Below, piece after piece: positions 3,913-34,071 of a DNA stretch of 34,073 nt. The position numbers and the translations under genes are program-made. Under the pieces are notes generated by a model. That model ran no database searches and was not told where the DNA came from. It saw only the letters and a program-made list of their open reading frames with translations. The DNA lies in contig NIVC01001285.1 of the NCBI GenBank assembly GCA_002269645.1, forward strand, positions 1-34,073, written 5' to 3'. This stretch comes from Macrostomum lignano (taxonomy: Eukaryota). Each line of letters opens with the position of its first letter. The stretch's first letter is position 1.

Positions 3913-3993
3913 CAGAGACACACAGACAGACAGACAGGCAGACAGAGACACAGACAGACAGACAGACAGACAGAAAGAGACACAGACAGATAA

Positions 3994-4038
<45 letters not shown>

Positions 4039-4292: not shown

Positions 4293-4294
<2 letters not shown>

Positions 4295-4329
<35 letters not shown>
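4295..4329. repeat. (GA)n microsatellite
   Basis: Perfect GA dinucleotide run. Confidence 0.95.
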
Positions 4330-4332
<3 letters not shown>

Positions 4333-4687: not shown

Positions 4688-4744
4688 AGCAGAGGCCGGG
4701 CAACCATTTCCGTTGGCACTGGATGTTGCTGCTGCTGTTGCTAC
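4688..4744 (-). CDS. Weak candidate 57-nt host exon
   Basis: GC-rich island in AT-rich DNA with a minus-strand acceptor (tctcag|) and donor (|gtaagg). Open as VATAAATSSANGNGCPASA (phase 0) or GSNSSSNIQCQRKWLPGLC (phase 1). Confidence 0.3.
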
Positions 4745-4896
4745 CTGAGATTTGACAAACAAGATAAGAATATTTTATAGATAAATCTGTATTGCTTGTG
4801 CAAAACAGAATTAACTGGCTCTGATAATATTATTTACACTACGCTCGTTAACGCGTACGATGCTTTTCTTAAATTGCTGCCAAGATAAAGATGCGA

Positions 4897-5850: not shown

Positions 5851-6309
5851 CGGCTATAAAAGGCTCAGGGTAGAGGAGCGGGTAGAGAACTGAGAGAGGA
5901 GCGTGGATTATAGCAATTAGTTTATATTTAGACGGATAGGCAAAATCAAATACGTCTATTTAAAAAAATTAAATTGCATCGAACTATTTAATTATATCTA
6001 TCAGCATTAGACTATTTATATACACTGGGCTAATTCCTGTGAGATAACAAAAGACTAAATTTTGATAAAACAGTCGGAGGGTAACCTCTATGAATAGCAG
6101 CATAAATGCATTTAATTATAGCATATAGGAAATTATACAGATGATTTATCATCTATTCCATTAGTCTAAATATATGCCAGTATTAAATTATCAATATTTC
6201 GCATAAATAATGCCTACCAATAAAATATTACAAAGCTTTCTATTTAATCAAAATTTCAGTCTTTTTTACTTTCCTAGGCTACAAAAGATTTATTTCCCAA
6301 TATATATCA

Positions 6310-8128
6310 TCAGATCTAGCTCCCAATCCATACCAGATCTACTACCCAATCCATACCAGATCTACTACCTAATCCATACCAGATCTATTACCCAATCTAT
6401 ACCAGATCTACTACCCAATCTATACCAGATCTACTACCCAATCTATACCAGATCTACTACCCAATCCATACCAGATCTACTATCCAATCCATACCAGATC
6501 TACTACCCAATCCATACCAGATCTACTACCCAATCCATACCAGATCTACTACCCAATCCATACCAGATCTACTACCCAATCCATACCAGATCTACTACCC
6601 AATCCATACCAGATCTACTACCCAATCCATACCAGATCTACTACCCAATCCATACCAGATCTACTACCCAATCCATACCAGATCTACTACCCAATCCATA
6701 CCAGATCTACTACCCAATCCATACCAGATCTACTACCCAATCCATACCAGATCTACTACCTAATCCATACCAGATCTACTACCCAATCTATACCAGATCT
6801 ACTACCCAATCCATACCAGATCTACTACCCAATCCATACCAGATCTACTACCCAATCCATACCAGATCTACTACCCAATCCATGCCAGATCTACTATCCA
6901 ATCCATACCAGATCTACTACCCAATCCATACCAGATCTACTACCCAATCCATACCAGATCTACTACCCAATCCATACCAGATCTACTACCCAATCCATAC
7001 CAGATCTACTACCCAATCCATACCAGATCTACTACCCAATCCATACCAGATCTACTACCTAATCCATACCAGATCTACTATCCAATCTATACCAGATCTA
7101 CTACCCAATCCATACCAGATCTACTACCCAATCCATACCAGATCTACTACCCAATCCATACCAGATCTACTACCCAATCCATACCAGATCTACTACCCAA
7201 TCCATACCAGATCTACTACCCAATCTATACCAGATCTACTACCCAATCCATACCAGATCTACTATCCAATCCATACCAGATCTACTACCCAATCCATACC
7301 AGATCTACTACCCAATCTACATCAGATCTAATTCCCAATCTATATCAGATCTAATTCCCAATCTACATCAGATCTAATTCCTAATCTACATCATCTAGTT
7401 ACTAATCTATATCAGATCTAATTCCCAATCTAGATTAGATCTAATTCCTAATCTACATCAGATCTATTTCCTAATCTACATCATCTAGTTACTAATATAT
7501 ATCAGATCTAATTCCCAATCTATATCAGATCTAATTCCTAATTTACATCAGATCTAGTTCCCAATCTACACTAGATCTAATTCCTAATCTACATCAGATC
7601 TAATCCCCAATCTACATCAGATTTAATTCCCAATCTATATCAGATCTAATTCCCAATCTACATCAGATCTACTACCCAATCTACATCAGATCTAATTCCC
7701 AATCTACATCAGATCTAATTCCTAATCTACATCATCTAGTTACTAATCTACACTAGATCTAATTCCTAATCCACATCGGATCTAATTCCCAATCTATATC
7801 AGATCTAATTCCCAATCTACATCAGATCTAATTCCCAATCTACATCAGATCTAATTCCCAATCTACATCAGATCTAATTCCCAATCTACATCAGATCTAA
7901 TTTCCAATCTACATCAGATCTAATTTCCAATCTACATCAGATCTAATTCCCAATCTACATCAGATCTAATTCCCAATCTACATCAGATCTAATTTCCAAT
8001 CTACATCAGATCTAATTCCCAATCTACATCAGATCTAATTCCCAATCTACATCAGATCTAATTTCCAATCTACATCAGATCTAATTCCCAATCTACATCA
8101 GATCTAGTTCCCAATCTACACTAGATCT
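6310..8128. repeat. 23-bp minisatellite made of two homogenised sub-arrays
   Basis: Unit ccaatccataccagatctactac runs to about 7315, then ccaatctacatcagatctaattc runs to about 8128. Almost every unit contains AGATCT. Confidence 0.97.
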
Positions 8129-8171
8129 GCATGTGCAATGTGCATCCAGTTTACCAGTTGTCAACTCTCAC

Positions 8172-8357
8172 CCTGCCACCCCGCTGAGCTGGGCGCTGAG
8201 CATCGCAGTAACTGGACGAATTTGAGCTGCTCACTCCAGACGAGGTGGACGCCGAGCCTGCAGACTGCTGCTGCTGTTGTCGAAGCTTTTGACCAGCAGC
8301 TGAAGAGCTGGCGGCTGTTGAACACGCAGCCGGTGTCTGGCGTTGCCGATAACTCAT
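8172..8357 (-). CDS. Candidate host exon (S/A/Q-rich)
   Basis: GC-rich island with ATG at 8357 and 62 open codons (MSYRQRQTPAACSTAASSSAAGQKLRQQQQQSAG...QRGGR) ending at the donor AGG|gtgaga. It is also open in other frames, so strand and frame are uncertain. Confidence 0.3.
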
Positions 8358-8844
8358 TATTGCACACGAGCTTGAAATCTTGGTAACGAACTCCAACAAG
8401 CTTTTAAACGAACCGGGTATATTCGAATTATAACAAGCAATAAACTTTGTTTTATTTCTTCTTCAACGATTATTCTTTACATGATCTAAGCACAGCCGTA
8501 TCGCCTGATGGAAAATATCTGCAATCATTGTAGCGAAGGTGTTTTAATTCTTTAAAACGTAGCTGTCTATCAACATGCTACTGCTAACTTTGTATCAATT
8601 CAAAAACGGGACATCCTTGACAAAATTCACAACTTCAGGAGTGCTATAAGTATTAGACAATAAAAATGCTAGAAAAAACATAAGCTACAAATTTAACCGG
8701 CGGATTCTTGCGCCTCGATACAATTCGTGGCTTGATGGCTTCGGATTGACTTCGCAACTTAAATTTTCTATCAATTTTGATACAGTATGGCGACAGCGAA
8801 TTGTCTGTCAGTCTATCTATTTGTCTGCCGTTCAAAGAGTCTGC

Positions 8845-8920
8845 CTGCTTGCCTGTTTGTCCGTCTGTCTGTCTGTCTGCCTGTCTGTCTGTCTGTCTGT
8901 CTGTCTGCCTGTCTGTCAGT
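8845..8920. repeat. (TCTG)n microsatellite
   Basis: Imperfect tctg/cctg run, the reverse complement of GACA. Confidence 0.9.
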
Positions 8921-9143
8921 CTTTCCTTAATCTAATAAGAACCAGAAAGAGAAACAGCTGATTTTCAAAATAAAATACACAAAAAACCTCTCGACAAATA
9001 CGTGGTTGAGACTTAATGAAAATTTCGATACTTGAAACCAGTACTAAGAAATAATTTTGACAGAAATTAAGAGTCTTACTCACTGACCAACAGCTTGGTA
9101 TCAGTTTAGCGTTTTAGCAAAGAGATTAAGCTCTTTAAAATAA

Positions 9144-9941: not shown

Positions 9942-10123
9942 GGGGGGGGGGGCATTACAAACCCAAAATATCACAACTCCGAAAGCACTACCATTATAAA
10001 CCCGAATTATCACAAACCCGAAATATCATGACTCCGAAAGTGCTAGCAACGTTACCCAAGGCTACATTGGTTTTCGGAGTCATGATATTTTGGGTTTCTG
10101 ATATTTTGAGTTTATGATGGGTG
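9942..10123. mobile_element. Truncated Mutator-like foldback MITE
   Basis: A G-run start is followed by subrepeats. Arm 9991-10039 is an inverted repeat of 10072-10120 (aaatatcatgactccgaaa / tttcggagtcatgatattt). It shares the motif cacaac(t/g)ccgaaa(a)gcactacc with the MITE at 24475. The right end appears missing and no TSD was found. Confidence 0.6.
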
Positions 10124-10864: not shown

Positions 10865-11170
10865 ATTTAAATGACACGAGGACAAGGTCGTCAGAATAGC
10901 GCAGTAGGGTCAAGCGCATCTCGTTGTAGCGGCGACCGATGCGTCTGCGCAGCAGGAAGCCGTCGCCTGCTGAGGGGAGTGCATTCTGGAACACCCAGTC
11001 AAGAAGCAAAACGAAGAGGAATGGTGCTAATGTGTCGCCCTGTAGCAATCCTGACGAAGTTTCAAAAAAAGTTCGGACAGGCGACCCTCCGTCACCAAAG
11101 CGGCGCGATACCGAGACATGATGGCATTAACTAGCCGCTGTGGGACCCAGTAGGCTGTGGTACTTTGCAT
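10865..11170 (-). pseudogene. Non-LTR retrotransposon (LINE, RTE/L2-like) reverse transcriptase fragment
   Basis: Minus translation LQGDTLAPFLFVLLLDWV...RYSDDLVLV matches the QG and YADD RT motifs. The upstream part (YWVPQRLVNAIMSRY) is in a shifted frame. Confidence 0.85.
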
Positions 11171-11174
11171 GAGG

Positions 11175-11932
11175 CTGCCCGACTGCATCACCTATAAACA
11201 GCTTCAGCAATGACTAATAGAGAAATTCGCACAACTCTCAGGACCTGATGAGTATTGAGAAGAGGCTGCAGCCAGCGCAAGAATGAGTCAACTGAAGATT
11301 ACGCAGATGCTCTGCAGGAGCTAGGAGAACAAGCCTTCCCTTGGCTTGAGCCTCGCCATCTAGAGCAATAACTGATTGACCAGTTCCTTTGTGGGATTTG
11401 CATGTCATCAGACTGCCACAAAAAGCTTTTCTGGATCCAACCTAGGACACTCAGCGAAGCCATGCAAGCACTAAAGAGGATGGAACTAGCTAAAGACCTG
11501 GCTCATTGTTTGAAAGAGTCCCCAGTCAGAATGTTGGACGGGGAGGGACAAGCCTCAAAGGAGCCCAACAACAGCACCCTCAAGAAGTTGGAAAAAGTCA
11601 TTAAGCAACAAGCTGCAATGATGCAGCAGCAGCAGCATCTACTCAACACGATGGCACAGCAGGCCACAGCCAATCAAATGACCAGTCAAGCAAACCGACC
11701 ACCACACTACACATGCTATGAGTGTCATCAAGAAGGACACAAGGCAAGAGATTGTCCGCACAGACATCAATCAACTCAGCAGTTTATGGGAAACAGCCAG
11801 CCGGAGGACGTAAATGGCAACACCCCCCAAGCTCCAGCCCAGGCTATGCAGCTGACACCGAACACGCCCCGGAAGAGTAGGAAGAGTATGGCCCCGCAGC
11901 CGCAGCGGCTGACTTGTGCAAGTTGTCAGTAA
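11175..11932 (+). pseudogene. gag: Degenerate gag with CCHC zinc knuckle
   Basis: ESTEDYADALQELGEQAFP aligns with young ESTDDYAEKLTELAYRAFP. CYECHQEGHKARDC lies at 11714-11755. There are in-frame stops and frameshifts. Confidence 0.85.
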
Positions 11933-12000
11933 TCAAAGAATCAGTTGATGGAGGTTTTCTGGATGCCTCTTTTGTAAATACAGTCCATGCGCATGACGCC

Positions 12001-12340
12001 GATCCATTTATTACTGGATGAGTGGCTTGACAAGAGGTTGCCTTTCTGCTAGACAGTGGAAGCAGAAGAAATTCCTTGGAGCGTCTACTTAGACCACCAT
12101 TAGCCGTCGTTCACCACGTTGTATAGTCACACCTGCTTACCCTAACTGAGTCACTATGTATGATGGGACTGAGTTAAGTCTCGCCACCAAAGTTATCCTA
12201 TCAGTTGAATTGGGGGATTATTTTGTGGAAACCGAATTCTTTGCCGCCGAAAGAGACTGGAAATCTTCTAGGAATTGATTTCATGCAGAGTCATTGCCAA
12301 GGACTGGACTTCCAGCAAGGAATGCTTACATTCCAACAAT
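12001..12340 (+). pseudogene. Degenerate aspartic protease remnant
   Basis: DPFITG*VA*QEVAFLLDSGS aligns with young DPYITGSILNKEVVYLLDTGS. The tail LLGIDFMQSHCQGLDFQQGMLT aligns with VIGVTFVQQYCNAIDFETGMLT. Confidence 0.85.
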
Positions 12341-12484
12341 GCACCCGACTTTTAGTATGCTATTCAAGGAGAGAACTGAAGGCCTGCCGAGTGTCTAGGA
12401 CAAAGTCTGCAATCCGATGGAATAGAATGCCCGATTGCATTCTTCAGTTGCAAGCTCTGTGACCCAGAAGTTCGCTACAAGGTC

Positions 12485-12710
12485 AACAAGCAGGACCTAC
12501 TAGGAATTGTTGATTACATGCGACACTTTCGAGAATACTTAATAGGAAAGAAATTTGAAGTAAGAAGTGACCATAAGGTCTTGCTTTGGCTGTTACGTCA
12601 GACAGAATCTACAGGGATTCTAGGTTGATGGGTCCAGAGGATCAGCAAATTTTAGTTCACCATCTCCCATCACAAAGGTACTGACCACACCAAAGCCGAT
12701 GCTCTATTGT
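12485..12710 (+). pseudogene. Degenerate RNase H C-terminal remnant
   Basis: FREYLIGKKFEVRSDHKVLLWLLRQTESTGILG*WVQRISKF*...KADAL aligns with young FRFYLVGKRFKVRTDHNALTWLLRQTEQTGILGRWIERLSEF...NADAL. Confidence 0.88.
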
Positions 12711-13820
12711 CACTTCAAAGAGACCAGCCTAAATGATGATGTTCAAGAGGCCACTATACCATTAGCCCTCTCTAACAACAGCCATTAGGTCTACCTACAG
12801 AGTTTGGAGACTGACTTGGACGAAGATTCGGAGGCCACCGCATTAGCAGCCCTCCCAGTCGAGCGCCACTGCTCATATCTTGGTCAAAAATTTACCGCTG
12901 AGGAGTCCCGCTGCTCTCTCATGAGCCAACAGACTCAGCATGTCGAGCCATCTTGTTGCTCTTCCATGAGCCTGCAGCCAACCACCTATTAACAATGCGA
13001 AGACGATATGTCTTGCGCCATGAAGCGCCTTTGTCCTACGCCAAAACTGACACGTTCCTATGCAGAGGTGACGAAGTCTGCATTTAAGAAAAACAGAGCA
13101 TGTACAGCTGAAGCATCTCCCAAACTTGCACCTTGTCAAAGTTTGCCGTGCTGCCGAGCATCATAGATCATCTGAAGCCACCATTTCAGCGCAACAAGCT
13201 CATCAAAGCCAGCAAGCAGGACGCGTATTATCCCTATTCCAAGCCAGGACCCATCTCGCAGCCGACGCAGCCGCTAGGATGTGCGTCCCCAACGTGATGC
13301 CAACATTGAGGTATGCCAACTTGAACCATTGCAGCCACCTCAGATAGGAAATCAACTAGCAGTCGCTATAGAAACAGCTGCCGCCATCAAGCTCTGTCTT
13401 GACCTGCCAAAGGCGATCATGGCTGACGCTTGGCTACTGGCCGCAAAAGCAGCTAGAGGCGCCGCTGCCCTGCAGGAACCACTGTCAGCGCAACTAATCC
13501 ACAGCTCGCCTACTCTGCCACAATCGCCACCGGTACAGCCGACCCAAGAACCACCTGTTCACAGCTTGCCCATTCAGCACAAACCAAGTAGCAACTTGTT
13601 TGACCTGATTGCCTCCGCAGCCAGACATTGTCAATTTGGACTATCCGACACCACCTATGCCTCCATCGCTGCGCTTCCGCCGCCCATCGCCAGTACCATC
13701 GCCTCCATGACTGTTTAGCTGGACTGAACTGGCCAAGGCCATCAGCACCGCCATCCGGGGCAGGCCTCAACAAGCTGATGTGACGACCCAAGTCAATCAT
13801 CTGGGCTCTATCAGTGAAGA

Positions 13821-14093
13821 ATGTATCAGTGCACTGACAGACCTACTTGTGAATGCCAGCCTAGAGGGGCAGCTATGCAGAAAATGGCTGACTCGATTTG
13901 CGATGGTTTCTGCTCCACAACTGCTGAAGCCAGGTGCCAGGCTATTGATGAAGTGGCCTGCTGCACTGCTACTGCTCTCCCACCACATCTGCCGCATGCG
14001 ACTTCTCTAGAGCTGGCAGTGCTTAAAATGTTATTTTTCTTAGGCCAAGCTATACAAGTACCAGACGAGCTTAACTGTTTTGTGCAATTTTAA
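13821..14093 (+). pseudogene. Probable remnant of an ORF3 homolog in the old Gypsy element
   Basis: CDGFCSTTAEARCQAIDEVACCTA (13899-13970) resembles young ORF3 CTRFLAQATAEQKVQCMEVACTYA, and it sits in the same position between pol and the PPT. Confidence 0.45.
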
Positions 14094-14508
14094 AATTCAT
14101 AAACATTAGGATGGTTGAGTCCAACATTTAGTCTAAAAAATATGCAATCTTTCATTAAAATATTTAAATGGTATACAATATTCTACTCCAACATTTCATT
14201 TAATTTATTCATGCATCTCAAAAACTTATTACACTAACCTTCAATCTTTAAAACATGTACAATCAAAAATCTCCAGCAATATGTAACAAATTGAATCATG
14301 ACTTGCAACTTTGCCTTTTAGCATGCTCAGTACATCAACTCTATGAACAGTGTTACCTTTTTAGTTTTTATACAATTTACTTTTCATTAAAACACTACAA
14401 TATATTTCTATAAACATTTAATATTTGACCATATTAATTCTGCCTTGCCACTTTCAAATAAATTGAATTATTGTTGTTGCTACTATAATTTAATTTGGAC
14501 AGGGAGAG

Positions 14509-15329
14509 TGTAGTGACTGGCTACTAAGTGGCTATTCAGCAGCATTCACTAGCTTTCCCTAAGAGCTCTGTGATCCATCGCACAGAGTCTCAATCCACCT
14601 GATCTAGAGAGAGAATTGGGCTGAAGTGTTTACTGCCCAATGACTCATTGCCTGAGCAGGTGTGGACAGCCACACACAATGTCTTCCCACTTGTGCTGAA
14701 GAGGCATAGCAGGATGACTCATCACCTACACGGGGTATAGTGGTTGCCTAGGAGAAAACAGGATGAGTCATCCACCCAAGTTCTATTTTTAGCACAACAT
14801 AAGCATGTAATTGTGTACGCATGTTAAGCGTGGCCGCTGACCTTGAGTCATGCCACTGCTGAGTAACAGGGTTACATTATTTGGAAGTTGGCCTTAAGTC
14901 ACGCATCTCTTGCGTGATTCTGATGACCAAATAAGGAAGTTTCACACATTTACCTATAAATATGGAGCACCTGAGAGCTGTTTTTCTCCAGACTGTGCCC
15001 CTGGGCTGCCGCACCTTGTTTGATTGCGTTGTCTTGCCTGGGCTCAACCAGAGCTGCCTCTTTTCCTCCAAGCTCTCCTCTCTCATTTCAGGATTTTCAG
15101 GATTAAGCAGCACCTTCAGGAATGATCAACTGTCAAGACATTTTTTAGATTTGCCTTGCTCTGAGTGACTTCGTTATTTAATTTCAGATGATTGATAGAC
15201 AACTCTGCCAACACATTGAGTCCACCTACCAAGGTGGCAGCAACCCTACCAAGTCTAAGGACTAAGGCTAACATTTAGGTTCCTTTTTAGGCAAATCGAT
15301 AGGTAGTACTACAATACTATCTGGCTACA
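14509..15329 (+). repeat. LTR of the old Gypsy element
   Basis: Preceded by the purine tract agggagag (14501-14508). Starts TGTAG like the young LTR, contains tataaata and the motif ggtggcagcaaccctacc shared with the young LTR. It ends ...ctaca at 15329 (alternative end 15313). Confidence 0.65.
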
Positions 15330-21951: not shown

Positions 21952-22672
21952 TGTAGTAGGGGGTTTAGTTCAATGCAGTTTTGCCAAGGCGTTTGCCAAC
22001 AGTTCTTATTCGTCGAGAGGAATTATTTTAGTAGCACGAAATTCTAGAATAAGCAGTTTTGCTTTTACGCTACTATTAGTAGTTCACCCTCGGGGAAATA
22101 TCTGAAGTTGTGGGAATTCGAGTATTAGCGGGTTCCTCTATTAGTAAAAGGCTGTTTGGCCTCGGGAAAAGCATCCTGTTCAGGACCGTCCATTGGACAA
22201 CGTTTGTAAGAGATCTAAGTCTCAAATAAGCCAGACTAAGGGAGTCTCCCCTTTATAAAATAAAAAGAATATATATAAGAAAGTATAAAAGGTAAGATCG
22301 GGGTAAAATAGGGAGACTAAGAGGAGTCTACCGCTTAGTCAAAACGGAGTCTACCGAGAATAGGAGAATTAGTATAGTCAGTTAGATAGAAGTAAGGGAA
22401 AGGAACCAGGAGTCTACCGGTTCTAATAACATAGTAATAATAGTGCTTAAATCTTCGCATATTTGGTTCAATAATATCATTTTCTTTTGTTTGTTTATTC
22501 CAATAATCTTACATGAAGTCGACTCTTGTCTCACTTATTTTAATTTAAAACTATTATTATAAGGGACATTAGTCTGGTGGCAGCAACCTACCAAATTAGA
22601 CTACATGATAACAGAAGTAATAATAGAAAACAGAATAAACCAGTAGCTTAACCGCGAGGCACGCCCATTCCA
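21952..22672 (+). repeat. 5' LTR (721 bp)
   Basis: Matches the 3' LTR except at 21974, 22317, 22511 and 22601 (by-eye comparison). TATAAAA at 22254 and 22284, AATAAA at 22634. Confidence 0.97.
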
Positions 22673-22674
22673 AT

Positions 22675-22684
22675 TGGTGGCAGC
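22675..22684 (+). promoter_or_regulatory. Primer-binding site, tRNA-Leu-like
   Basis: TGGTGGCAGC lies 2 nt after the LTR end. It is complementary to the 3' end GCUGCCACCA typical of metazoan tRNA-Leu (AAG/UAG). Confidence 0.8.
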
Positions 22685-23078
22685 TTAGAGGATTAGTAAA
22701 CCCGAGAAACGCAAAAAGTTAAGACTGGTGCAAACTAAAAATTAGTAAAATATATAACCTGCAAAATAAAACGTTTCGAAAAGTCAGAATCAGGAGAGAA
22801 GGTAATCTAAAATACTGAAACTAATACGATAATCCTAAATCCTAGGATTAACGGATTAAGATCGAATTAACGCTTCTAGTAGCTAATAGTGTCAAAAATT
22901 ATCAGCAAGGGCGAAATTGACCCAGATAAAAGTGAAGAGATCACGCAGTCTAGCAGTTCTGTTCACAATTAGAAGTAACCAATTAAACTAGTTAGGTAGA
23001 TCAGTGACTCAGGAGTCTCCCAGTCTCACTGAAATCAATTAATCATAAGAAGCGATAATTCGTAAATTCGAAAATCTA

Positions 23079-23825
23079 ATGGACGCTAATGACGTAGTAG
23101 AAGCTCTGGCTGAAGGAATTAGAGACAGACTAGACATTAGAAAGCACATTAGGATCCAAAAGTACACGCCTAATCAAGATATTGACGTGTGGATTCAGGC
23201 TTTTGAGCAAAGGTGTATCGCAGATGAGATACCTGCAGCCGATTGGAAAAATGAACTACTATCTAATCTAGATGTCCAATCAGCGTTTGCTATTGTGACA
23301 AGGCTGAATTTAGATCCTAATCTACCGTATGCTGAATTCAAGGATAGGCTCATCGAACGATTCACGCATGCGGGTAGTGCTCAAGAAGCTAGGGAAGAAT
23401 TCCGTAGCAGATACCAATCTAAGACAGAGAGCACTGACGACTATGCGGAGAAGCTGACAGAGTTAGCCTATAGGGCGTTTCCTCACCTAACTAACGATCA
23501 AAGACAGGAAGAAGTGGTGGAACAATTTATTAGAGGTGTTAGGATAACCCCAGAGGCTAGGGAAAAGCTACTGCTAGCACAGGCGAACACACTCCAAGAG
23601 ACACGTCGAGTCTTGCGACGTATCGAAATGGCGTATACCATGTCTCGCCGAGGGAGAGATCCAGCTCAGTGCAAGGCAACTGGAGGAGATGAGGCTGAGA
23701 GTAGCTTGAGGGAGTTAGTCCGCAAGCAAGGTGAGACACTAGAAAGCCAGCAGAGGGTGCTCCAGGAGTTGCTTCGACACCAGCAGAGTGCTGAGCAGAA
23801 GGCTAGGCAGAAGCCGTACCAAGGC
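23079..23825 (+). pseudogene. gag: Gag, N-terminal 249 codons (interrupted by hAT insertion)
   Basis: Retrotransposon capsid-like sequence. The ORF runs into the hAT terminus and stops at 23841-23843. Removing 23826-25733 restores a 336-aa ORF. Confidence 0.93.
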
Positions 23826-24474
23826 CAGTGCTGGGCAAGTTAATCAATTTTTTTAACTCGTTAAAAGTTAAAAAGTTAATTTAATTGCTCCAAAATAATT
23901 AACTGTAACTAGTTAATTATTTAACTTTTGCCCAAAATTTAACTTCTGAAAAGTTAAAAGTTAAAGTTAATAATTCTCTAACGGAAAAAGTGACATTTTC
24001 CCGGACATGCGTCCGGCGCGTTTTTTAAATTTCAGGTCGGCGCGGCGCGGCTGTGGCCAGGTCGCGGTGCGGCGCGGCGCGCGGTGGCGCGACGCAGCGC
24101 AGAAGGTCGTGCGGCGGCGCGGGAAGTCGCGCGGCGGCGCGACATGGCGCAGTATGGTGCAACGCGACAAGGAAATATCTATGCAGCGCGACGCGGAGCA
24201 GCGCAGCAGGGAAGGCAGAATTACAACTACATGTATACAACTAGGGATGTCGACCCCGGGGAGGGCTCCCCGGGGTTCGGGGAGCTTGTCGGGGAATACT
24301 CCCCGGGGAATTAGACCGGGGACCCCGGGGAGAAAAAAAGCATTTTTAACTAAATTTTTGCCATTTAAATAAGAAAATCATTCACAGAAAGCTGATTGAA
24401 ACTCTGTCTATGCATTTTTACCGCAAAACTGCTTATTTCAATGTATTATTTCAAACACAACACACGTTTGAATG

Positions 24475-24697
24475 GGGGGGGGTTCATAAGACCGAAATTT
24501 CACAACGCCGAAACACCATACTTCACAAGACCGAAACTTCATAAGATCGAAATTTCACATCGTAGAAAACCTTACAATAAGGATTGTATTGCATGCAGAA
24601 TTTTCGGCGTTGTGAAATTTCGGTCTTTTGAAGTTTCAGTCTTGTGAAGGGTAGTGCTTTTCGGCGTTGTGAAATTTCGGTCTTATGAAAGCGACCC
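24475..24697. mobile_element. Mutator-like MITE nested in hAT B (223 bp)
   Basis: Long TIRs ttcataagaccgaaatttcacaacgccgaaa / tttcggcgttgtgaaatttcggtcttatgaa with GGG...CCC ends. Perfect 9-bp TSD GTTTGAATG (24466-24474 and 24698-24706). Confidence 0.9.
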
Positions 24698-24984
24698 GTT
24701 TGAATGTTTTTTTCACTATGAGTCTTTCAATCAAGCAAATTGAACGTACGAGCGTAGAAACCCGTCAGGAAAAAGAAGCCTTACTGACTATTGTGTTGGT
24801 CTGCGTTGATGGCTTGACGCATTTGACGCAGGCACAGCGCTATATCCTGCGTCAGTCACTGACGCATAGGGGGGTGTCATACAATAACAAAATACTCCCT
24901 ATTAGACAGGACAAAATGGTGATTTACATGTATCTGCAAGAAATTAAAATTCCGATTATAAAAACAGTCTCATTCATTAATTAT

Positions 24985-25110
24985 CCTCCCTCGACTGCAG
25001 CTGCTGAGTATGCATTTTCCGCCTCCGGAGTCTGGACCCTTTCTGATAAGGTGCGCGCACGATTTGGTGATGCCACGTTGTCAAATACAGTTTTAAACAA
25101 ACATTGCCTT
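24985..25110 (+). pseudogene. hAT transposase C-terminal dimerisation domain remnant
   Basis: PPSTAAAEYAFSASGVWTLSDKVRARFGDATLSNTVL resembles the hAT PxTSxxSERxFSxxG...R.RL motif. Confidence 0.7.
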
Positions 25111-25733
25111 AAGTTTTTACCCTTGCGCCTTGAACATGTAGTCCATCCAAAGCTTTAATCAAAGTTTAAGAAATGCCACTTAGTGACTTAAGATCTAAGT
25201 TATCCGCCGTTTTTTACTTATTTTTTCCCCGGAGTCCCCGGGGTCCCCGGGGAATGACAGTAAATTACCCGGGTCCCCGATAAGAAAATTCCCCGGGGAA
25301 TCGACATCCCTATGTACAACGATAACTTCTAGTAGTCCTTGAGTAGAATATCAATAGATAATAGTTGAAGATTCCAGAATCTTCCGGAATATTCTATACA
25401 TTATAACTTGTAACTGAAATAATATACATGTAATAGTTTGTGACGCGTTAAATAATGCTTAGAAAGGCGAAGTTATTTTATGTATGTATTAATTTTACTT
25501 TTTAATGGCATACAAGCTGTTGAAACCCGCGGATTTTGAACCCGGGGAACTCTATTTCCCGGAATTATTAACTTTTGTCATTTAACTTTAACTTACAGAA
25601 AAAAATTAACGATTTTTGTTAACTAGTTAATACATAAAAAATTTAACGAAAATTTAACGATTTTTAAAAAAATTTAACTAGTTAATTAACTAGTTAAACA
25701 ATTAACTAGTTAACGCCCAGCACTGACCAAGGC

Positions 25734-25997
25734 CAGCAACAGGGCCAAGGTCAGAAGCAGCCAGTAAAGTGCTTCAAGTGTGGGAAAAGCGGTCACATAG
25801 CTAAGCATTGCCAGCAGCAGCAGAATCAGCCGCAGTTTCCGCAGCAGCAGTTTCCACAACCACCACAGTTTATTCCGTACCAACCGCAGTACCCGCCGCC
25901 GCAGTTCCCGCAGCAGCAGTTCCCGCAGCAGTACCAGAATAAGAATCAGGGAAACGGAGTAGCCGGAAGCGTAGGGGGCAACGCTTTCCAGAAGTAG
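25734..25997 (+). pseudogene. gag: Gag C-terminal part: CCHC knuckle and Q/P-rich tail
   Basis: QQQGQGQKQPVKCFKCGKSGHIAKHCQQQQNQPQFPQQQFPQPP...NAFQK* is in frame with 23079-23825 across the TSD. Confidence 0.93.
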
Positions 25998-26019
25998 ACA
26001 GTCAGCAGTCTGTAGCCTC
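25949..26019 (+). promoter_or_regulatory. -1 programmed ribosomal frameshift signal (gag-pol)
   Basis: G GGA AAC in the gag frame, a 9-nt spacer, then stem GGAAGCGT/ACGCTTTCC (25965-25989). The loop GGGGC could pair with GCCTC (26015-26019). The -1 frame is open into pol. Confidence 0.8.
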
Positions 26020-29000
26020 GCAACCTGTAAATAGCAGCGATAGTTTTTCTGTAAATAGTGAATTGAATATGCATGCGCAACCATTTAATCAACCAAACAT
26101 TTATTCTCAGCACTTTTCACACGCACCACAGCAACAACCTTGTTCTAGTAAGCAGCAAATTAAACCACAAAATTTAAGCGAACCAACTAAGAAGCAAAAT
26201 TACGATCCGTATATTACTGGCAGCATTCTAAATAAGGAGGTAGTTTATCTATTAGACACTGGCAGCAATAGGAGCATTCTAGGACGAGAAACCTGGAAAC
26301 ATCTGTTCACTGGCAAGAATAGTCACTTAATTAAGCAGTGGAACAATAGAATCGTGTCATTCACGGAAGAGCCGATTCCAATTAAAGGTTCCGTAGTAAT
26401 TAAGGCGACATTCGGAGATTTTGAAGAAGAAATAGAGTTTCTCTTATGTGACGCAGGAGTAGACAATGTAATAGGCGTGACGTTTGTCCAACAATATTGT
26501 AATGCTATCGACTTTGAGACAGGAATGCTAACTATGAAGCAGGGAGCCAGAATTCCACTTCGTTCTACCAGAGCTAAGCCTCAGGTTAAGAGAATCTATG
26601 TTGCAGAAAAGACGACAGTTCCAGCTAATAGTTCAGGATTAGTCAAAGTCAGGTTAGCCACAGGTAGTGAATCCAATTTCGGAGTGCCATCAGTTGTTGA
26701 GCCACTCAGATCAGGATTGAAGACTAGAGCAGAGAAGGTAACTGTAGTGCCAAGCTTAGTAACTCTAAGGCAAGGAGAAGCTTATCTAGAAGTCATTAAC
26801 ACCAGCTCACAGGAAGCTAGAGTGCCAGCATCAGCACTAGTAGGAATGGCTAAACCGCTTTTAGCTAGTGAATTAAACTATCTTAAGGATCAACCAGAGA
26901 AAGAGCAGTTATGCCAGAATAAGAACACGCAGTTTTGCGAAAACATCAGACAGGTTCAAGACAAGTCAGAAGATTGGATTAGTGAGATCGACATAGGAAA
27001 TGAACTGACTCAGGAGCAGAGACAGAAGGTGATCGAGGTCGTCAAGGAACATTCAGCAGCTTTCTCACAACACAAGTTAGACTTAGGCAGAACGCACTTA
27101 GTCACGCATGAGATTATCTTGAAGGACAACAACCCAGTTCAGATACCAGCTAGGAAGATTCCACCTCATTGGATCAAAGAGGTAGATGAACAGTTAGATC
27201 TCATGTTGGCTAGAGGCATCATTAGGCCTAGTTACTCGCAGTACTCGACTCCATTAGTCATAGTACCTAAGAAGGATGGTTCGCTGAGATTAGTTAACGA
27301 TTATCGAGCACTAAATAACAAATCGGAGTACTTTCCGTATCCAATAACTAATATTAATGAAACATTCTCGTGTCTCCATGGAGCCAGTCAATTTTCTACG
27401 TTAGATCTATTCTCAGGATATTATCAGATAGCTCTTAGGGAAGAAGATAAGTGCAAAACTAGTTTTCCAACTTTACATCGAGGCTCGTTTGAGTACGAAG
27501 TTTTGCCAATGGGATTGCAAGGAGCTCCAGGAACTTTTCAAAGGTGCATGAACTTAGTTCTTAAGGACATTGCACAGAAGTTCGCCATAGCTTACTTAGA
27601 CGATGTAATAGTTTATAGTACAGACTTTGAATCTCACTTAGAACACCTGAAAGAAGTGCTCAAAAGACTAATCCAAGCTAATATGAAACTAAAAGCGAAG
27701 AAATGTCACCTTTTCAAATCAGAACTACAATATCTAGGACACGTCATAGGCAAAGCAGGAATTAAGAGAGATGCGTCAAAGTTAGAAGCGATTAGGAACT
27801 GGCCGAAACCGAAATCTGTGACAGAGCTTCGAAGTTTTCTCGGACTCTGTAATTATTATCGAAAATTCGTTAGAGATTTTGCCGAGGTAGCAGCACCGCT
27901 CTGTGAGCTAACGAAGAAGAACATCAAATGTATCCAGGACAAATGGACCAGGATTCATGATGAATGCTTCGAGTTGTTAAAGGAACGGATGTGTTCCGAA
28001 GAAGTGCTTGCTTACCCAGAGTTTAATACAGACCCCCAAGTTTACTTTGTGTTAGACACTGATGCATCAGATGTCAGAATTGGGGCGGTCTTAAATCAAG
28101 TACAGAGCGACGAAGTTGAGAGACCGATCGCGTATTATAGTCGGAAAATGAGGCAGTCAGAAAGTAGATATCCGATTACGAGGAAGGAGCTTCTAGCGAT
28201 TGTTGACTCGCTGAAGTACTTCAGGTTTTACCTCGTAGGGAAACGTTTTAAGGTGCGCACTGATCACAATGCCCTAACCTGGTTGCTTCGCCAGACCGAA
28301 CAGACAGGCATTTTAGGTCGTTGGATCGAGAGACTTAGTGAGTTTGATTTTGAGATTGAGCATAGAAGTGGCCCTAAGCATGTGAATGCTGATGCTCTAT
28401 CCAGGATCCCGGATCCTCAACAGGATGAGTCATCCCCATATGCCAGGTCGCTTAGCTGTAGGGCAACTGTGAACACAGACCCAGCATCAGCTGTTACTGT
28501 GAGCTCAGGCAATTCCGCGCAAGCCGAAACCTGTAGTCTACACAGTGGAGTTACGTCATGCTGTTCGCCGCAGAATATGGCGCCGAACCGACACAATACT
28601 CAGAGTTTTAGTAGCAGGTTGCTAAGCAAAAGGCAAGAACAGGAGCCTAAGGAAAGGCACCCGCTTGTTTGCAATGCACTGCTGAGTGATTACCTTCGTA
28701 GCCCTGTGCGTCGCGAAAATTTGGTCGCAGCTCAGCTAGCTGACCCCGCACTAAGCTATGTCAGGAATCTGATTGAATCTGACTTGCCGAAACCGAATTT
28801 TCAAGAAAGACTAGAATTGTCTCACGAGATTAGAAATCTGCTAGGTTATTTTGAACTCTTCAGGATAGAAGACGGTGTTCTTAGAATAGACTTAAATTTA
28901 GGGCGGACCGAATCTAAAGTGGTGTTGCCCAAGTCTTTAGATGGTGAAGTTTTTCACGAATTCCACGATTCACCGTTAGCAGGTCATTTAGGAAGAGACA

Positions 29001-29965
29001 AAACTTATCAGCGAGTTAAGGAAAGATTTTGGAGAGTAGGATTAGCTACAGCAGTCGAAAAGTACGTCGCCAAGTGCAAATCTTGTTTAGATAGTAAATC
29101 AAGAAAGCGATGCAAGGCACCCGTGCAGAATTTTCCTATTGTCGAGCCATTCTCACGCCTTCACATTGATTTGATAGGTTCGATCAATCAGACTAGCAAA
29201 TCTGGTAACAAATATGTCTTGTCAGTTATTGACAGCACTAGCAAATTTCCATTTGCGTTTGCAATTAAAAATCAGAAGGCTAAGACAGTAATTAAAATTC
29301 TGCAGGAGCGAGTTTTCGCCGACTTTGGAATACCTCAGTGGATTCACACAGATCAGGGAACACAATTTACAGGGAGAGCATTTAGAAAGTTTTTAGACCT
29401 CTATGGGATTAGGCACACTAGGACAACAAGCTATCATCCACAAAGCAATGGGCTAGTAGAAAATTTAAACAAACAAATTAAGTCAATTCTTACCTGTTTG
29501 CTCGAGAAAGAACATGCGAACTGGGATGGTCTTTTGCCCGGTTGTATAACCGCATTGCGCACCAGCACGCATACAGCCACAGGTTTCAGTCCGCATTATC
29601 TTGTGTTTGGAAGAGAGGCCCGGATGCCGAGTGACAATGTGTTCCAGCAGCCAAAGGCGTTCGCCGATCTGCCTGCTTACGTTCAAGAGCACTTGACTCA
29701 CCTGCAAGAGGGGCAAGAACTCGCCAAACAGCGGCTCACATTAATACAACGTAAGCGTGAGCAGCACTATTCTAACAAACCTAAACAACCAGACTTACCT
29801 ATAGGGAGCTTAGTTTTCATTAACAACCCAGTCATCACACAGACAGAAGCCAACAAGTTCCACAGGAAGAGAAGAGCAGTCTACGAGGTCATAGAACAGT
29901 TATCAGAAGTAGTTTACAGGATTAGATTATTAAAAAAAGTACTAAGGCTAGAAAAGAGGAATTAG
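25949..29965 (+). CDS. pol: Pol polyprotein (PR, RT, RNase H, integrase)
   Basis: 1300-aa ORF from 26063, with the frame open back to the slippery site. Motifs: LLDTGS (PR), YLDD (RT), LDTDAS/TDH (RH), GHLGRDKT...C-x2-C and D-D-E (HIDL, DQGTQF, VE) (IN). Probably not expressible from this copy because gag is broken. Confidence 0.95.
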   Translation, partial: GKRSSRKRRGQRFPEVDSQQSVASQPVNSSDSFSVNSELNMHAQPFNQPNIYSQHFSHAPQQQPCSSKQQIKPQNLSEPTKKQNYDPYITGSILNKEVVYLLDTGSNRSILGRETWKHLFTGKNSHLIKQWNNRIVSFTEEPIPIKGSVVIKATFGDFEEEIEFLLCDAGVDNVIGVTFVQQYCNAIDFETGMLTMKQGARIPLRSTRAKPQVKRIYVAEKTTVPANSSGLVKVRLATGSESNFGVPSVVEPLRSGLKTRAEKVTVVPSLVTLRQGEAYLEVINTSSQEARVPASALVGMAKPLLASELNYLKDQPEKEQLCQNKNTQFCENIRQVQDKSEDWISEIDIGNELTQEQRQKVIEVVKEHSAAFSQHKLDLGRTHLVTHEIILKDNNPVQIPARKIPPHWIKEVDEQLDLMLARGIIRPSYSQYSTPLVIVPKKDGSLRLVNDYRALNNKSEYFPYPITNINETFSCLHGASQFSTLDLFSGYYQIALREEDKCKTSFPTLHRGSFEYEVLPMGLQGAPGTFQRCMNLVLKDIAQKFAIAYLDDVIVYSTDFESHLEHLKEVLKRLIQANMKLKAKKCHLFKSELQYLGHVIGKAGIKRDASKLEAIRNWPKPKSVTELRSFLGLCNYYRKFVRDFAEVAAPLCELTKKNIKCIQDKWTRIHDECFELLKERMCSEEVLAYPEFNTDPQVYFVLDTDASDVRIGAVLNQVQSDEVERPIAYYSRKMRQSESRYPITRKELLAIVDSLKYFRFYLVGKRFKVRTDHNALTWLLRQTEQTGILGRWIERLSEFDFEIEHRSGPKHVNADALSRIPDPQQDESSPYARSLSCRATVNTDPASAVTVSSGNSAQAETCSLHSGVTSCCSPQNMAPNRHNTQSFSSRLLSKRQEQEPKERHPLVCNALLSDYLRSPVRRENLVAAQLADPALSYVRNLIESDLPKPNFQERLELSHEIRNLLGYFELFRIEDGVLRIDLNLGRTESKVVLPKSLDGEVFHEFHDSPLAGHLGRDKTYQRVKERFWRVGLATAVEKYVAKCKSCLDSKSRKRCKAPVQNFPIVEPFSRLHIDLIGSINQTSKSGNKYVLSVIDSTSKFPFAFAIKNQKAKTVIKILQERVFADFGIPQWIHTDQGTQFTGRAFRKFLDLYGIRHTRTTSYHPQSNGLVENLNKQIKSILTCLLEKEHANWDGLLPGCITALRTSTHTATGFSPHYLVFGREARMPSDNVFQQPKAFADLPAYVQEHLTHLQEGQELAKQRLTLIQRKREQHYSNKPKQPDLPIGSLVFINNPVITQTEANKFHRKRRAVYEVIEQLSEVVYRIRLLKKVLRLEKRN

Positions 29966-30375
29966 TCATGCATAGGGATAATTTACTACCCGTACCAACA
30001 GCCGATTACGTTAGTGAGGAAGAAAAGCCAGAAAGCAGTTGTGCCAGGCGACCGAAACTTCGAGAAAATGTACCGCTTAATCCGATGTACGAAGCAGCCG
30101 ACAGTGAGAGTGAACATGAAGATGAAGTGCAGTTTGTGCCAGTGCAGAGTCAGAATAATGTTCCAGTACCAGTGCAGGATATGCCAGTGCAGGTTATGCC
30201 AGTACAAGAAGATAATCTACCAGTGCAAAATAATAATGAGCAGCCAGCAATCGAAACTAGACCAGTTAGAGATAGACGGGAACCGAGTAGATTAGCGATA
30301 GACCCAGGCCGGAAGAGCTATGTGCAAAAGGTAACGGAGTTGTTTAACCCCTACCTGCTCTTCCAGCTCGAATAG
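29938..30375 (+). CDS. Pol/integrase C-terminal tail in the -1 frame after an A7 run
   Basis: STKARKEELVMHRDNLLPVP continues the Gypsy IN C-terminal motif (VYRI...xHxxxLxP). One extra A at 29932-29938 would join it to pol. Confidence 0.75.
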   Translation, partial: STKARKEELVMHRDNLLPVPTADYVSEEEKPESSCARRPKLRENVPLNPMYEAADSESEHEDEVQFVPVQSQNNVPVPVQDMPVQVMPVQEDNLPVQNNNEQPAIETRPVRDRREPSRLAIDPGRKSYVQKVTELFNPYLLFQLE

Positions 30376-30379
30376 CATT

Positions 30380-31216
30380 ATGGCTGACGCCCCGGAGCGG
30401 GTATACCCAGTCAAGACAATTTACTCGGGAAAGAAAAGAAGAAGAAGTAGCCCCGATGAAAACGAACAGCCACAAATACGATCGGTACGAGCAAGAGAAG
30501 CAACTGAGAAGCCCATAGAAGTTCGGCAGCGAGAGGAAGTGGACGAAGATAAAGAGGCTGGAGAGTTGGTTGTAGATCTGAATGGAGTAGACCTGGAGGA
30601 GGCAACGAGAAGGCATGATGAGGAGGTGCGGCGAGAACAGGAGGAATTCATGGCAGCTCTACTGGGAGTAGAATTACCTGAACTCGAGGAAGAGCTCAGC
30701 CCGAAGAACGACGCCCCAGCAGAAGTATCGGAACCGCAAGAAGTGCCGGAACCTAAGGAAGCGCCGGAGGCGAGGCCGACGACTAATGAGACTCCGGTCG
30801 ATGTAGCTATCTTCTTCAGGGCCGACACACCGCAGCCACAAGACCTTGCTGAAAGCAACGAGCAGCCAGGAGCAAGCCCACGAAGTTTCAGGAAGAGTAC
30901 CAAGGCGCTCAAAAAGTGGCTGCTAAGAACAGGCAGCACTGGCCACTACGACCCGGCGGTGCCGCCAGAGTGTACTCGATTTCTGGCCCAGGCCACCGCT
31001 GAGCAGAAAGTCCAGTGTATGGAAGTCGCCTGCACGTACGCCCTCCAATATGCTGAGGATAGGGCTAGGGGACCATTGTCGCCCTTCCAAGTAAGTGAGC
31101 ATCTCCGGGCCATGGTCGAATTATTCGACCCAAAGGACAGGCGAACCCCCGCGACTGGCCTCCTTTACCAGTGCTCTCAGCGCGCGCCAACTTGCCGACC
31201 GATAGGGCAACTTTAA
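30380..31216 (+). CDS. ORF3, 278-aa accessory protein of unknown function (not env-like)
   Basis: Intact ATG...TAA ORF 4 nt after the pol-tail stop. It has a basic KKRRR motif, an acidic Glu-rich middle and a more ordered C-terminal region of about 100 aa. No signal peptide or transmembrane stretch. Confidence 0.8.
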   Translation: MADAPERVYPVKTIYSGKKRRRSSPDENEQPQIRSVRAREATEKPIEVRQREEVDEDKEAGELVVDLNGVDLEEATRRHDEEVRREQEEFMAALLGVELPELEEELSPKNDAPAEVSEPQEVPEPKEAPEARPTTNETPVDVAIFFRADTPQPQDLAESNEQPGASPRSFRKSTKALKKWLLRTGSTGHYDPAVPPECTRFLAQATAEQKVQCMEVACTYALQYAEDRARGPLSPFQVSEHLRAMVELFDPKDRRTPATGLLYQCSQRAPTCRPIGQL

Positions 31217-31796
31217 TAATAGACAAGGATTAACATTTCAGCTTTATTAACCTTTTCTACACAATTAAACAGCTTTAATTTTTTTAATTTTTTTTTGATG
31301 TTGTATGCATTTTTCTACACAGTGCCATAGTGCCATTTATTTTTCTTTTCTTCAAATCATTGCACCGCTTCTTGCCTTACATATATATTTACATATCGAT
31401 TATATTCAGGAAGAAAACCTATATGGTCATTGCCTATTTCATTAATCCCATTATGCTCAATTATTACTGTTCAAGTGCTCACATACTATTGCTCAAACTA
31501 ATATTGTATGGCTTAATTATTGTCGTTTACTTCCACTAATCATGTACTCGTACTGTTTTATTACTTTTGCTGATAGTATGCTATGTCCATTGTTATTACC
31601 TATACTGTATATTACTATATAATCATACTATGTTCTATACTATGCTATGCTACCATTACTCAGTTATTATTATTGCTTAATCATGCTCATTATATCGCTT
31701 ATATTTAGTCCATGCATGCCACTACTAATACTGTCTGAATTAATTGAAATAAACCCGATATTAACTAAATATGCAAAGGGGTTTGCACATTTTTTT

Positions 31797-31809
31797 AGTG
31801 GGGGGTAAG
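31797..31809 (+). promoter_or_regulatory. Polypurine tract
   Basis: agtggggggtaag lies immediately before the 3' LTR. Confidence 0.8.
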
Positions 31810-32530
31810 TGTAGTAGGGGGTTTAGTTCAAGGCAGTTTTGCCAAGGCGTTTGCCAACAGTTCTTATTCGTCGAGAGGAATTATTTTAGTAGCACGAAAT
31901 TCTAGAATAAGCAGTTTTGCTTTTACGCTACTATTAGTAGTTCACCCTCGGGGAAATATCTGAAGTTGTGGGAATTCGAGTATTAGCGGGTTCCTCTATT
32001 AGTAAAAGGCTGTTTGGCCTCGGGAAAAGCATCCTGTTCAGGACCGTCCATTGGACAACGTTTGTAAGAGATCTAAGTCTCAAATAAGCCAGACTAAGGG
32101 AGTCTCCCCTTTATAAAATAAAAAGAATATATATAAGAAAGTATAAAAGGTAAGATCGGGGTAAAATAGGGAGATTAAGAGGAGTCTACCGCTTAGTCAA
32201 AACGGAGTCTACCGAGAATAGGAGAATTAGTATAGTCAGTTAGATAGAAGTAAGGGAAAGGAACCAGGAGTCTACCGGTTCTAATAACATAGTAATAATA
32301 GTGCTTAAATCTTCGCATATTTGGTTCAATAATATCATTTTCTTTTGTTTGTTTATTCCAATAATCTTCCATGAAGTCGACTCTTGTCTCACTTATTTTA
32401 ATTTAAAACTATTATTATAAGGGACATTAGTCTGGTGGCAGCAACCTACCAAATTAGAGTACATGATAACAGAAGTAATAATAGAAAACAGAATAAACCA
32501 GTAGCTTAACCGCGAGGCACGCCCATTCCA
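31810..32530 (+). repeat. 3' LTR (721 bp)
   Basis: TGTAGTAGG...CCATTCCA followed by the TSD GCTA; about 99.4% identical to the 5' LTR. Confidence 0.97.
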
Positions 32531-33624: not shown

Positions 33625-34071
33625 TCAGCCTTCCTTTTCCGACCGATGGACTTCTGCTACTGCATCATTAAGTCTCTTCAGCTTCTGTCTGACCGAGCTG
33701 ATCTTCTCCTCGTCCTGCGTCTCCATGGCGACGCGTCTCTCTTTCTTGATCATCTCCATCTGCTGCAGGCTGAGCTCCACGTGCTCGCAGCAGTCGCTGT
33801 AGTGAGCCAGAGTGAGCAGCTCCTCCAAGTCCGGGTCTTCAAGCAGCTGTTCAATCCAATGATCGAATGCGATTGCAGGTGCGCGATTGCGGAGCAGCTC
33901 AGCTTGGAGACTCCAGCTCAGGCAGCGGAAGTTCACGTACAGGTGAGAGGAGAGAGGCTGCGAAAGTCTGGCTGTGAATAGAGATTGTGTGAACTCGGGA
34001 AGGAACGGGAAGTGAGGCGGAGAGTCACAGGGGAGGCAGAACCTCCACGCCCAGTCTGAGTCTTCTGGCAG
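33625..34071 (-). CDS. Probable last coding exon of a host gene (5' end beyond the window or at acceptor 33972-33974)
   Basis: The frame is open from the window edge to TGA for 149 codons: LPEDSDWAWRFCLPCDSPP...LQAELLRNRAPAIAFDHWIEQLLEDPDLEELL...coiled-coil-like tail...EKEG*. It is GC-rich with non-repetitive, protein-like composition. Family not recognised. Confidence 0.65.
   Translation of the reverse strand: MPEDSDWAWRFCLPCDSPPHFPFLPEFTQSLFTARLSQPLSSHLYVNFRCLSWSLQAELLRNRAPAIAFDHWIEQLLEDPDLEELLTLAHYSDCCEHVELSLQQMEMIKKERRVAMETQDEEKISSVRQKLKRLNDAVAEVHRSEKEG

Follow-up and report, generated by a model that had tools for sequence, protein, structure and literature searches.

A non-env third gene in a young Ty3/gypsy retrotransposon of Macrostomum lignano, with a possible role in RNA export

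We have found that a Ty3/gypsy family of the flatworm Macrostomum lignano carries a genuine third gene, ORF3, which is separate from pol and is not env. It lies at positions 30380–31216 on the + strand of the window, the 34,073-nucleotide stretch of contig NIVC01001285.1 analysed here, and runs intact from ATG to TAA over 278 codons, with no homologue found. LTR elements with non-env third ORFs have been described before, and ORF3 is an orphan variant of such ORFs. New here are the top-ranked splice acceptor of the element, which precedes the ATG by 13 nt, and the occurrence in one protein of a KKRRR run and two export-like motifs. Among the functions considered we rank first, tentatively, that of a spliced, shuttling adaptor of the CERV/Rev kind, which would export the unspliced genomic RNA of the element.

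The young element and its third gene

A complete Ty3/gypsy element occupies 21952–32530, with paired TG...CA LTRs, a target duplication, a primer-binding site and a polypurine tract all present. The 5′ LTR (21952–22672, +, 721 nt) directly follows a GCTA target duplication and contains TATA-like words, a donor-like AAG/GTAAGA at 22292 and four copies of GGAGTCTMCC; the 3′ LTR (31810–32530, +) is followed by the second GCTA. The two LTRs differ at 4 of 721 positions (0.55%), and the insertion is evidently recent. The primer-binding site, TGGTGGCAGC (22675–22684, +), matches what we take to be a leucine tRNA end. The gag gene (23079–25997, +; Pfam Retrotrans_gag and zf-CCHC) and pol (26069–30375, +; PR-RT-RH-IN by Pfam) have the CCHC knuckle and the domain order of Ty3/gypsy elements. 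This copy is broken twice, by a 1900-nt insertion in gag (23826–25725) and by a frameshift near 29930 in pol; ORF3 is intact. The pol of the element is 98% identical to the M. lignano protein BOX15_Mlig004203g3 (P0004) and 62% identical to another, P0007, and in an integrase tree of 72 sequences the window, P0004 and P0007 form a group with support 1.0, on a long branch with no supported sister.

ORF3 fills part of the stretch from the pol stop (30375) to the 3′ LTR (31810), its ATG falling 4 nt past the stop in a good start context (A at −3, G at +4). Not one of 20,000 nucleotide shuffles gave a stop-free run as long, the longest reaching 270 codons, which bears out the sequence-only reading of an intact 278-residue frame in the env position. 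The five alternative frames over ORF3 contain 4–17 stops, and GC is highest at the first codon position. A codon-usage score trained on gag and pol gives −0.019 for the ORF3 frame versus −0.102 and −0.007 for the other frames, and so shows no preference for the frame of ORF3. GC and GC3 are 0.56 and 0.55, compared with 0.43 and 0.41 in pol. The 3′ untranslated region that follows (31217–31809, +) is AT-rich (GC 0.29) and ends in the polypurine tract at 31797–31809. ORF3 is not a piece of pol, since P0004 spans the tail at 29968–30375 and ends at the same final residue. A 135-residue ORF at 29968–30375 was considered as a fourth gene and rejected, as it is the pol tail, through which the sister protein P0004 reads.

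The base composition raises the alternative that ORF3 is passenger DNA, a captured and possibly host-derived fragment that has no function for the element and owes its open frame solely to the youth of the insertion. The GC and GC3 of ORF3 lie above those of pol and closer to those of a host-like frame at the end of the window (GC3 0.69), the LTRs are just 0.55% apart and the related old element described below has no recognisable homologue, all of which would fit. We nevertheless hold this to be rather unlikely: the protein collections searched yielded no host donor gene, the ATG sits 4 nt past the pol stop in a good start context with the best acceptor just upstream, gag and pol of this copy have already been broken while ORF3 has not, and the related element has a matching layout.

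The insertion in gag is DNA-transposon-like, with CAGTGCTGGGC inverted ends and an 8-nt target duplication. Nested within it is an inner insertion (24242–25312) with TAGGGATGTCGA ends, whose duplication matches at 7 of 8 positions, and there is a third nested insertion (~24470–24700), related to 9954–10102; presumably these are elements resembling hAT. Four overlapping canonical heat-shock elements at 25365–25396, inside the DNA-transposon-like insertion, could make the locus heat-inducible, including the downstream pol and ORF3. PMC12801592 deals with heat-shock elements in the LTRs of M. lignano; an HSE-driven LTR family was rejected as the identity of the young element, there being no such element in its LTR.

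The predicted protein and its probable expression

The ORF3 protein has a basic N-terminus, an acidic middle predicted to be disordered and a basic helical C-terminal domain, a layout that partly rests on low-confidence single-sequence models (pLDDT 54.5 and 58). The NLS-like KKRRR is at residues 18–22 (30431–30445, +), and a run of five K/R was obtained in 213 of 20,000 shuffles; acidic residues make up 29 of the 80 at positions 51–130. Both features had been pointed out in the sequence-only reading and are present as described. The acidic region also contains two class-1a NES-like motifs (residues 63–72 and 90–99; 30566–30676, +) that flank the sole confident helix of the model, residues 72–94 (pLDDT 84–89), the surroundings of which are predicted to be disordered. 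At least two such motifs occurred in 361 of 20,000 shuffles, in a post hoc test, and pol contains the same pattern five times, gag a single time. The shuffle tests on ORF3 motifs were all devised once the motifs were already known. The C-terminal domain (residues 166–278; 30875–31213, +), predicted to be all-helical in a single-sequence model of mean pLDDT 58, contains 17 K/R, 10 D/E and 5 Cys. There is no long arginine-rich RNA-binding motif in ORF3.

ORF3 appears not to be env, since it has no transmembrane stretch. Its highest 19-residue hydropathy is 0.51, too low for a signal peptide or a transmembrane anchor and in agreement with the sequence-only reading; the furin motif (R-x-K/R-R) is absent and there is a single N-glycosylation site (NxT). 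The position in the element and the probable spliced expression would suit a protein that serves particle spread, as a degenerate env or a small fusogen, and small fusogen ORFs are reportedly located after pol, like ORF3. Given the low hydropathy, the one glycosylation site, the missing furin motif and the lack of any viral fold match, this role is largely refuted and we regard it as very improbable; a minor share of our expectation is kept for env-like and unforeseen roles taken together.

Searches with ORF3 found no relatives. Word-index searches returned 1489 candidates among proteins of similar length, none at E ≤ 0.01, and 4178 among longer proteins, none at E ≤ 0.1. When residues 130–278 were run in a full HMMER scan against 1.84 billion representatives, three proteins matched; all three are tandem-repeat proteins, with scores that add up over 6–10 stretches of at most 10.2 bits each, and were rejected as relatives for that reason. 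Two ESM Atlas searches gave nothing usable, the Pfam scan gave 0 families at E ≤ 1, PHROGs a single match at E 0.15 and the PDB sequences a best E of 0.85. Foldseek of the low-confidence models against PDB and BFVD found zero matches at E ≤ 0.001, and the VIA fold search with the low-confidence domain model reached a best Z of 7.6, for a designed helical protein, with none of 48,161 entries at Z ≥ 8. As had been claimed from the sequence, ORF3 has no recognisable family, by Pfam and PDB sequence alike. It is an orphan within the collections searched, since the unannotated ORFs of eukaryotic assemblies, where sister copies would be expected, lie outside them. No ORF3 protein model was found by the searches of collections that do contain M. 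lignano pol models, and an abundant separate ORF3 mRNA is for this reason weakly disfavoured.

ORF3 is probably translated from a subgenomic RNA that uses the acceptor 13 nt upstream of its ATG, either by cis-splicing from a donor in the LTR or leader or by spliced-leader (SL) trans-splicing. The candidate 3′ splice acceptor, at the end of pol (30343–30366, +), comprises a branch-point-like TTTAAC, a pyrimidine tract and TTCCAG, and the exon would begin at 30367. The element contains 749 AGs; by pyrimidine count at YAG sites the acceptor at 30366 ranks first among them, and it is the sole AG with at least 11 pyrimidines and a branch point, under criteria chosen post hoc with the site already seen. 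The last 12 residues of pol, which overlie the acceptor, are identical in the sister copy, and the repeat-rich stretch just upstream differs. According to the sections consulted of PMC8629364, M. lignano trans-splices ~30% of its genes and resolves operons by trans-splicing, with [T/C]TNCAG as the top motif of its trans-splice acceptors. TTCCAG at 30366 fits this motif, as one of 19 YTNCAG words in the element. If the SL route is used, the retrotransposon would treat itself as an operon. None of the literature titles found concerned SL-route retrotransposon expression in flatworms, within the partial coverage of that search.

As for a cis-splicing donor, AAG/GTAAGA at 22292 matches 8 of 9 consensus positions and is tied best of the 411 GTs in the element. 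It lies only ~38 nt past the first TATA-like word and beside the third, and being so near to them it may be untranscribed. A second donor-like site, AAG/GTAATC, is in the leader (22800–22808, donor at 22802, +) and matches 7 of 9 positions. An in-frame gag–ORF3 fusion could be made from the weak donor at 23213 only, the stronger gag donor at 23731 being out of phase.

The old related element

The sequence-only reading had held that ORF3 is conserved across a lineage of elements, on the strength of an old relative in the same window. The coding remains of this element (10950–12706, +) are a decayed gag, a protease and the last 100 residues of RNase H; neither RT nor integrase was detected in it and no 5′ LTR was found. 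They are followed by a relic in the position of the third ORF (12720–14093, +; GC-rich, 0.52), which contains the quoted motif at 13899–13961, and by an AT-rich 3′ region (14094–15275, +) with a purine tract at ~14497–14508 and a probable 3′ LTR from 14509. The order of the old 3′ part, GC-rich (0.52), AT-rich (0.26), polypurine tract and LTR, is that of the young element. The old element is possibly a non-autonomous derivative that retained its 3′ ORF.

The relationship itself is well founded in sequence comparison. The old RNase H piece shows 54–55% identity to three M. lignano Pols, and none of the other 117 of the 120 matches listed exceeds 45%. The gag genes of the old and young elements match at E 8e-13 with 38% identity, and in a frameshift-aware comparison the proteases score 161 versus a null of 29, a score reached by 0 of 150 shuffles. 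A 42-column stretch is common to the old probable LTR (from 15233) and the young LTR (from 22576), with 0 of 500 shuffles as good. By these comparisons the two elements are of the same sub-lineage, so that the old relative of the sequence-only reading stands, together with its ORF-like relic in the matching position. The shared LTR stretch, GGTGGCAGCAAC, is PBS-like and is found at 22576–22613, from 32434 and at 15233–15273, 100 nt before the LTR end. It is the only similarity detected between the young LTRs and the old probable LTR, and is a possible conserved U5 cis-element.

The old element probably had a third ORF, of which 12720–14093 is the relic. Its best frame contains 10 stops, and frameshifts are probable; taken by itself, the number of stops lacks significance (160 of 2000 shuffles). 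The motifs quoted from the two elements and the acidic stretch translate exactly as had been given. A frame test over 13920–14039 returned a log-odds of 9.1 for the frame of the motif against −1.7 and −3.9 for the others, and this is plausibly the coding frame of the old element; the objection that the old motif is out of frame was rejected on these values. Three stop-free pieces of the relic matched no Pfam or PHROGs family above the cut-off.

Similarity between the two third ORFs was not found to exceed chance. With tblastn of ORF3 against the window, at three settings and E ≤ 10, the site at 13899 was not reported, and BLASTP of ORF3 against the relic gave E 5.5. The best local score of ORF3 against 12720–14095 is 39, which 1277 of 2000 query shuffles reach for the whole protein and 555 of 2000 for residues 175–278, and the alignment covers a segment other than the quoted motif. 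Frameshift-aware alignment to the old 3′ region at four settings gave scores reached by 112, 73, 65 and 144 of 150 shuffles. The quoted 21-mers align to each other with a score of 32 and require two gaps. For windows chosen around the motif, 289, 400 and 132 of 5000 shuffles did at least as well in local alignment, and 942, 1904 and 469 of 5000 in global alignment. The match at 13899, whose insignificance against shuffles the sequence-only reading had itself named as a ground for refutation, is therefore at chance in the unbiased tests (as in 1277 of 2000) and borderline only where the windows were chosen around the motif (132–400 of 5000, local), and conservation across the lineage does not follow from it. 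Nor could a new protein family be upheld, the similarity of ORF3 to the relic being no greater than that of shuffles and the collections searched containing no ORF3 homologue. The acidic stretch near 12804, which had also been cited, is present but not diagnostic, as it adjoins RNase H and pol tails of the lineage are acidic too.

It is possible, though we think it doubtful, that ORF3 and the old 3′ ORF are true homologues that have diverged fast, whatever their function, which would be compatible with each of the functional readings. The elements are of one sub-lineage by RNase H, gag and the shared LTR stretch, position and layout are alike, the motif is in the likely coding frame and a colinear alignment of 50 residues is obtained in the motif-chosen windows (132–400 of 5000 shuffles). 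Yet every unbiased test is at chance, whereas for gag and for protease these two elements give a clear alignment, and the old relic differs in its greater length, its richness in alanine and proline and a middle that is not acidic.

Possible functions and known third ORFs

In the reading that we tentatively rank first, ORF3 would enter the nucleus by its KKRRR, bind the unspliced RNA of the element through the basic helical C-terminal domain and hand it to CRM1 through the leucine-rich motifs; intron-containing genomic RNA would thereby leave the nucleus, as it does by CERV for Cer1 and by Rev for HIV. We infer each of these functional steps. The element has predicted splice sites, and with such sites its unspliced RNA would have to be exported, which is the problem that ORF3 would solve. 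Counted in favour are the acceptor (ranked first of 749 AGs), the donor at 22292 (8 of 9 positions), KKRRR (213 of 20,000) and the NES-like pair (361 of 20,000); counted against are the NES pattern in pol and gag, the lack of a long arginine-rich motif and the 19 occurrences of YTNCAG. Because of the acceptor and the export-like motifs, RNA export is at least as well indicated as the functions proposed in the sequence-only reading, which were a transactivator, an anti-silencing factor and a chromatin tether.

The acidic region with its hydrophobic anchors would fit an activation domain equally well, and ORF3 could be a transactivator of its own LTR, in which the basic helical domain binds GGAGTCTMCC in DNA or nascent RNA. 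LTR transactivators are known in foamy virus Tas and HIV Tat. The 29 D/E with interspersed hydrophobic residues at 51–130 and the NLS-like run agree with this, as do five exact copies of GGAGTCTMCC in the 5′ LTR and leader (22241, 22323, 22346, 22409 and 23012) and a weak tendency of the ORF3 model in Foldseek towards Pol II CTD-interacting domains (E 0.44, rmsd 10), which is below significance. However, such domains are absent among the 50 rows listed in the domain-only fold search, no DNA-binding family is matched, and GGAGTCTMCC, a word obtained from the LTR in the first place, may be bound by host factors, so that we consider transactivation unlikely, if only a little less likely than RNA export. 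The first GGAGTCTMCC copy sits within a near-palindrome, GGGAGTCTCCC, that we take to resemble a kappa-B site.

Quite unlikely, in our estimate, is an anti-silencing factor acting on piRNA or heterochromatin, or one that tethers to chromatin or steers integration. The nuclear-type motifs would be expected of it, and orphan status and dissimilarity to the related 3′ ORF would fit rapid evolution in conflict with the host; against it, no chromodomain, PHD or known anti-silencing family was matched in Pfam.

The export adaptor is best compared with CERV of the C. elegans Ty3/gypsy element Cer1, which, in the sections consulted of PMC10309623, is lineage-restricted, non-env and encoded in the env position, is made from a spliced mRNA, has a candidate NLS and NES and is required for export of the genomic RNA. 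ORF3 likewise is a non-env ORF of a Ty3/gypsy element located after pol and before the 3′ LTR, with no homology outside the host lineage, a candidate NLS, leucine-rich NES (at motif level in ORF3), a nuclear role (presumed for ORF3) and, as we infer, a spliced mRNA. The two differ in that CERV has 517 residues, combines gag exons with the 3′ ORF and contains H, M and G (GTPase-like) domains (PMC10309623, same sections), whereas ORF3 has 278, its own ATG and a predicted structure that is largely disordered and helical. CERV was not among the word-index or HMMER (residues 130–278) results for ORF3. Membership of the CERV family is not indicated; ORF3 may work like CERV. With Rev and Rex it shares a basic NLS, leucine-rich NES-like motifs and production from spliced RNA, as described for Rev in the consulted part of PMC10309623 and presumed for ORF3, but it is larger and acidic, has no long arginine-rich motif and belongs to a flatworm retrotransposon. 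In this reading ORF3 would work like CERV and Rev and be a member of neither family.

Other third ORFs resemble it in position. The consulted part of PMC5408684 describes non-env ORF3s of bdelloid LTR elements, a GDSL esterase and a DEDDy exonuclease, and unassigned extra ORFs in plant LTR elements. The rotifer ORFs are likewise family-specific and in the env position; they are recognisable enzymes, whereas the M. lignano ORF3 matches no catalytic domain (0 Pfam families at E ≤ 1). Errantivirus env follows pol and probably uses a subgenomic RNA (PMC13524379, sections consulted), like ORF3, which differs in having no signal or transmembrane segment and no F- or gB-type ectodomain matched in Pfam. 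Flatworm errantiviruses, in the same sections, have a gB-type env and the order gag-env-pol, and the word Macrostomum does not occur there. The Ty3/Mdg4 families of the M. lignano LTR survey PMC12801592 are of the same host and superfamily as the young element. In the sections of that survey covered, the word ORF does not occur in the main text, and zero of five short words from the window occur in the text of supplement 5. None of the literature titles found concerned a third ORF in Macrostomum elements.

Accessory genes set complex retroelements apart from simple ones, and in the literature compared CERV is the only non-env third gene of a Ty3/gypsy element whose nuclear function has been demonstrated. 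An unrelated flatworm protein doing a CERV-like job would, if true, be a case of convergence, and with a Rev-like shuttle regulated export of RNA would have arisen independently once more among LTR retroelements. It is a long shot that there is a Macrostomum-specific lineage whose families have in common a fast-evolving third gene, expressed through the SL trans-splicing of the host at the acceptor in the end of pol, and that this is an independently evolved Rev-like RNA shuttle. For now the finding amounts to a single orphan ORF in a single copy, and ORFs of its kind are known to occur, so that the significance is moderate. The function of ORF3 is testable in the host, because LTR-reporter transgenesis exists in M. 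lignano (PMC12801592, sections consulted).

ORF3 was also compared with 79 integrase-bearing loci from genome contigs, which lie outside the sub-lineage since their integrases are merely 24–37% identical to that of the window; most appear to be eukaryote-type LTR elements binned with prokaryotic genomes. With ORF3 and three frames of the old element as queries, tblastn found nothing at E ≤ 1 in the 79 loci, and phmmer found no domain above 2 bits against ORF3 in 78 of 114 downstream ORFs and tails, the 36 from L070–L079 having been dropped as probably non-LTR. An LTR-like repeat pair is present in 18 loci, and in 9 of these the distance from the pol stop to the 3′ repeat is at most 283 nt. Candidate non-env post-pol ORFs, whose membership of the elements is putative, were seen in five loci. 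Those of L009 (6234–7511) and L031 (7119–7655) have C2H2 fingers and an Arg/Ser-rich tract, below the Pfam cut-off, and are 62% alike over 65 residues; that of L021 (7536–9032) is a TatD nuclease (147 bits); and those of L001 (5951–6775) and L012 (7316–8113) are similar to each other (E 3e-5) and GDSL-like by eye, with no Pfam family. In L022, L023, L024, L029 and L053 the integrase precedes RT, an order that we take to be Gmr1-type; the element of the window has the usual order. Elsewhere in the window, a 148-codon open frame on the − strand (33626–34071, GC3 0.69) probably includes a host exon, with putative exon limits, and the region 700–8930 contains several minisatellite arrays with periods of ~8, 23, 29 and 30 nt, which account for its long low-complexity ORFs.
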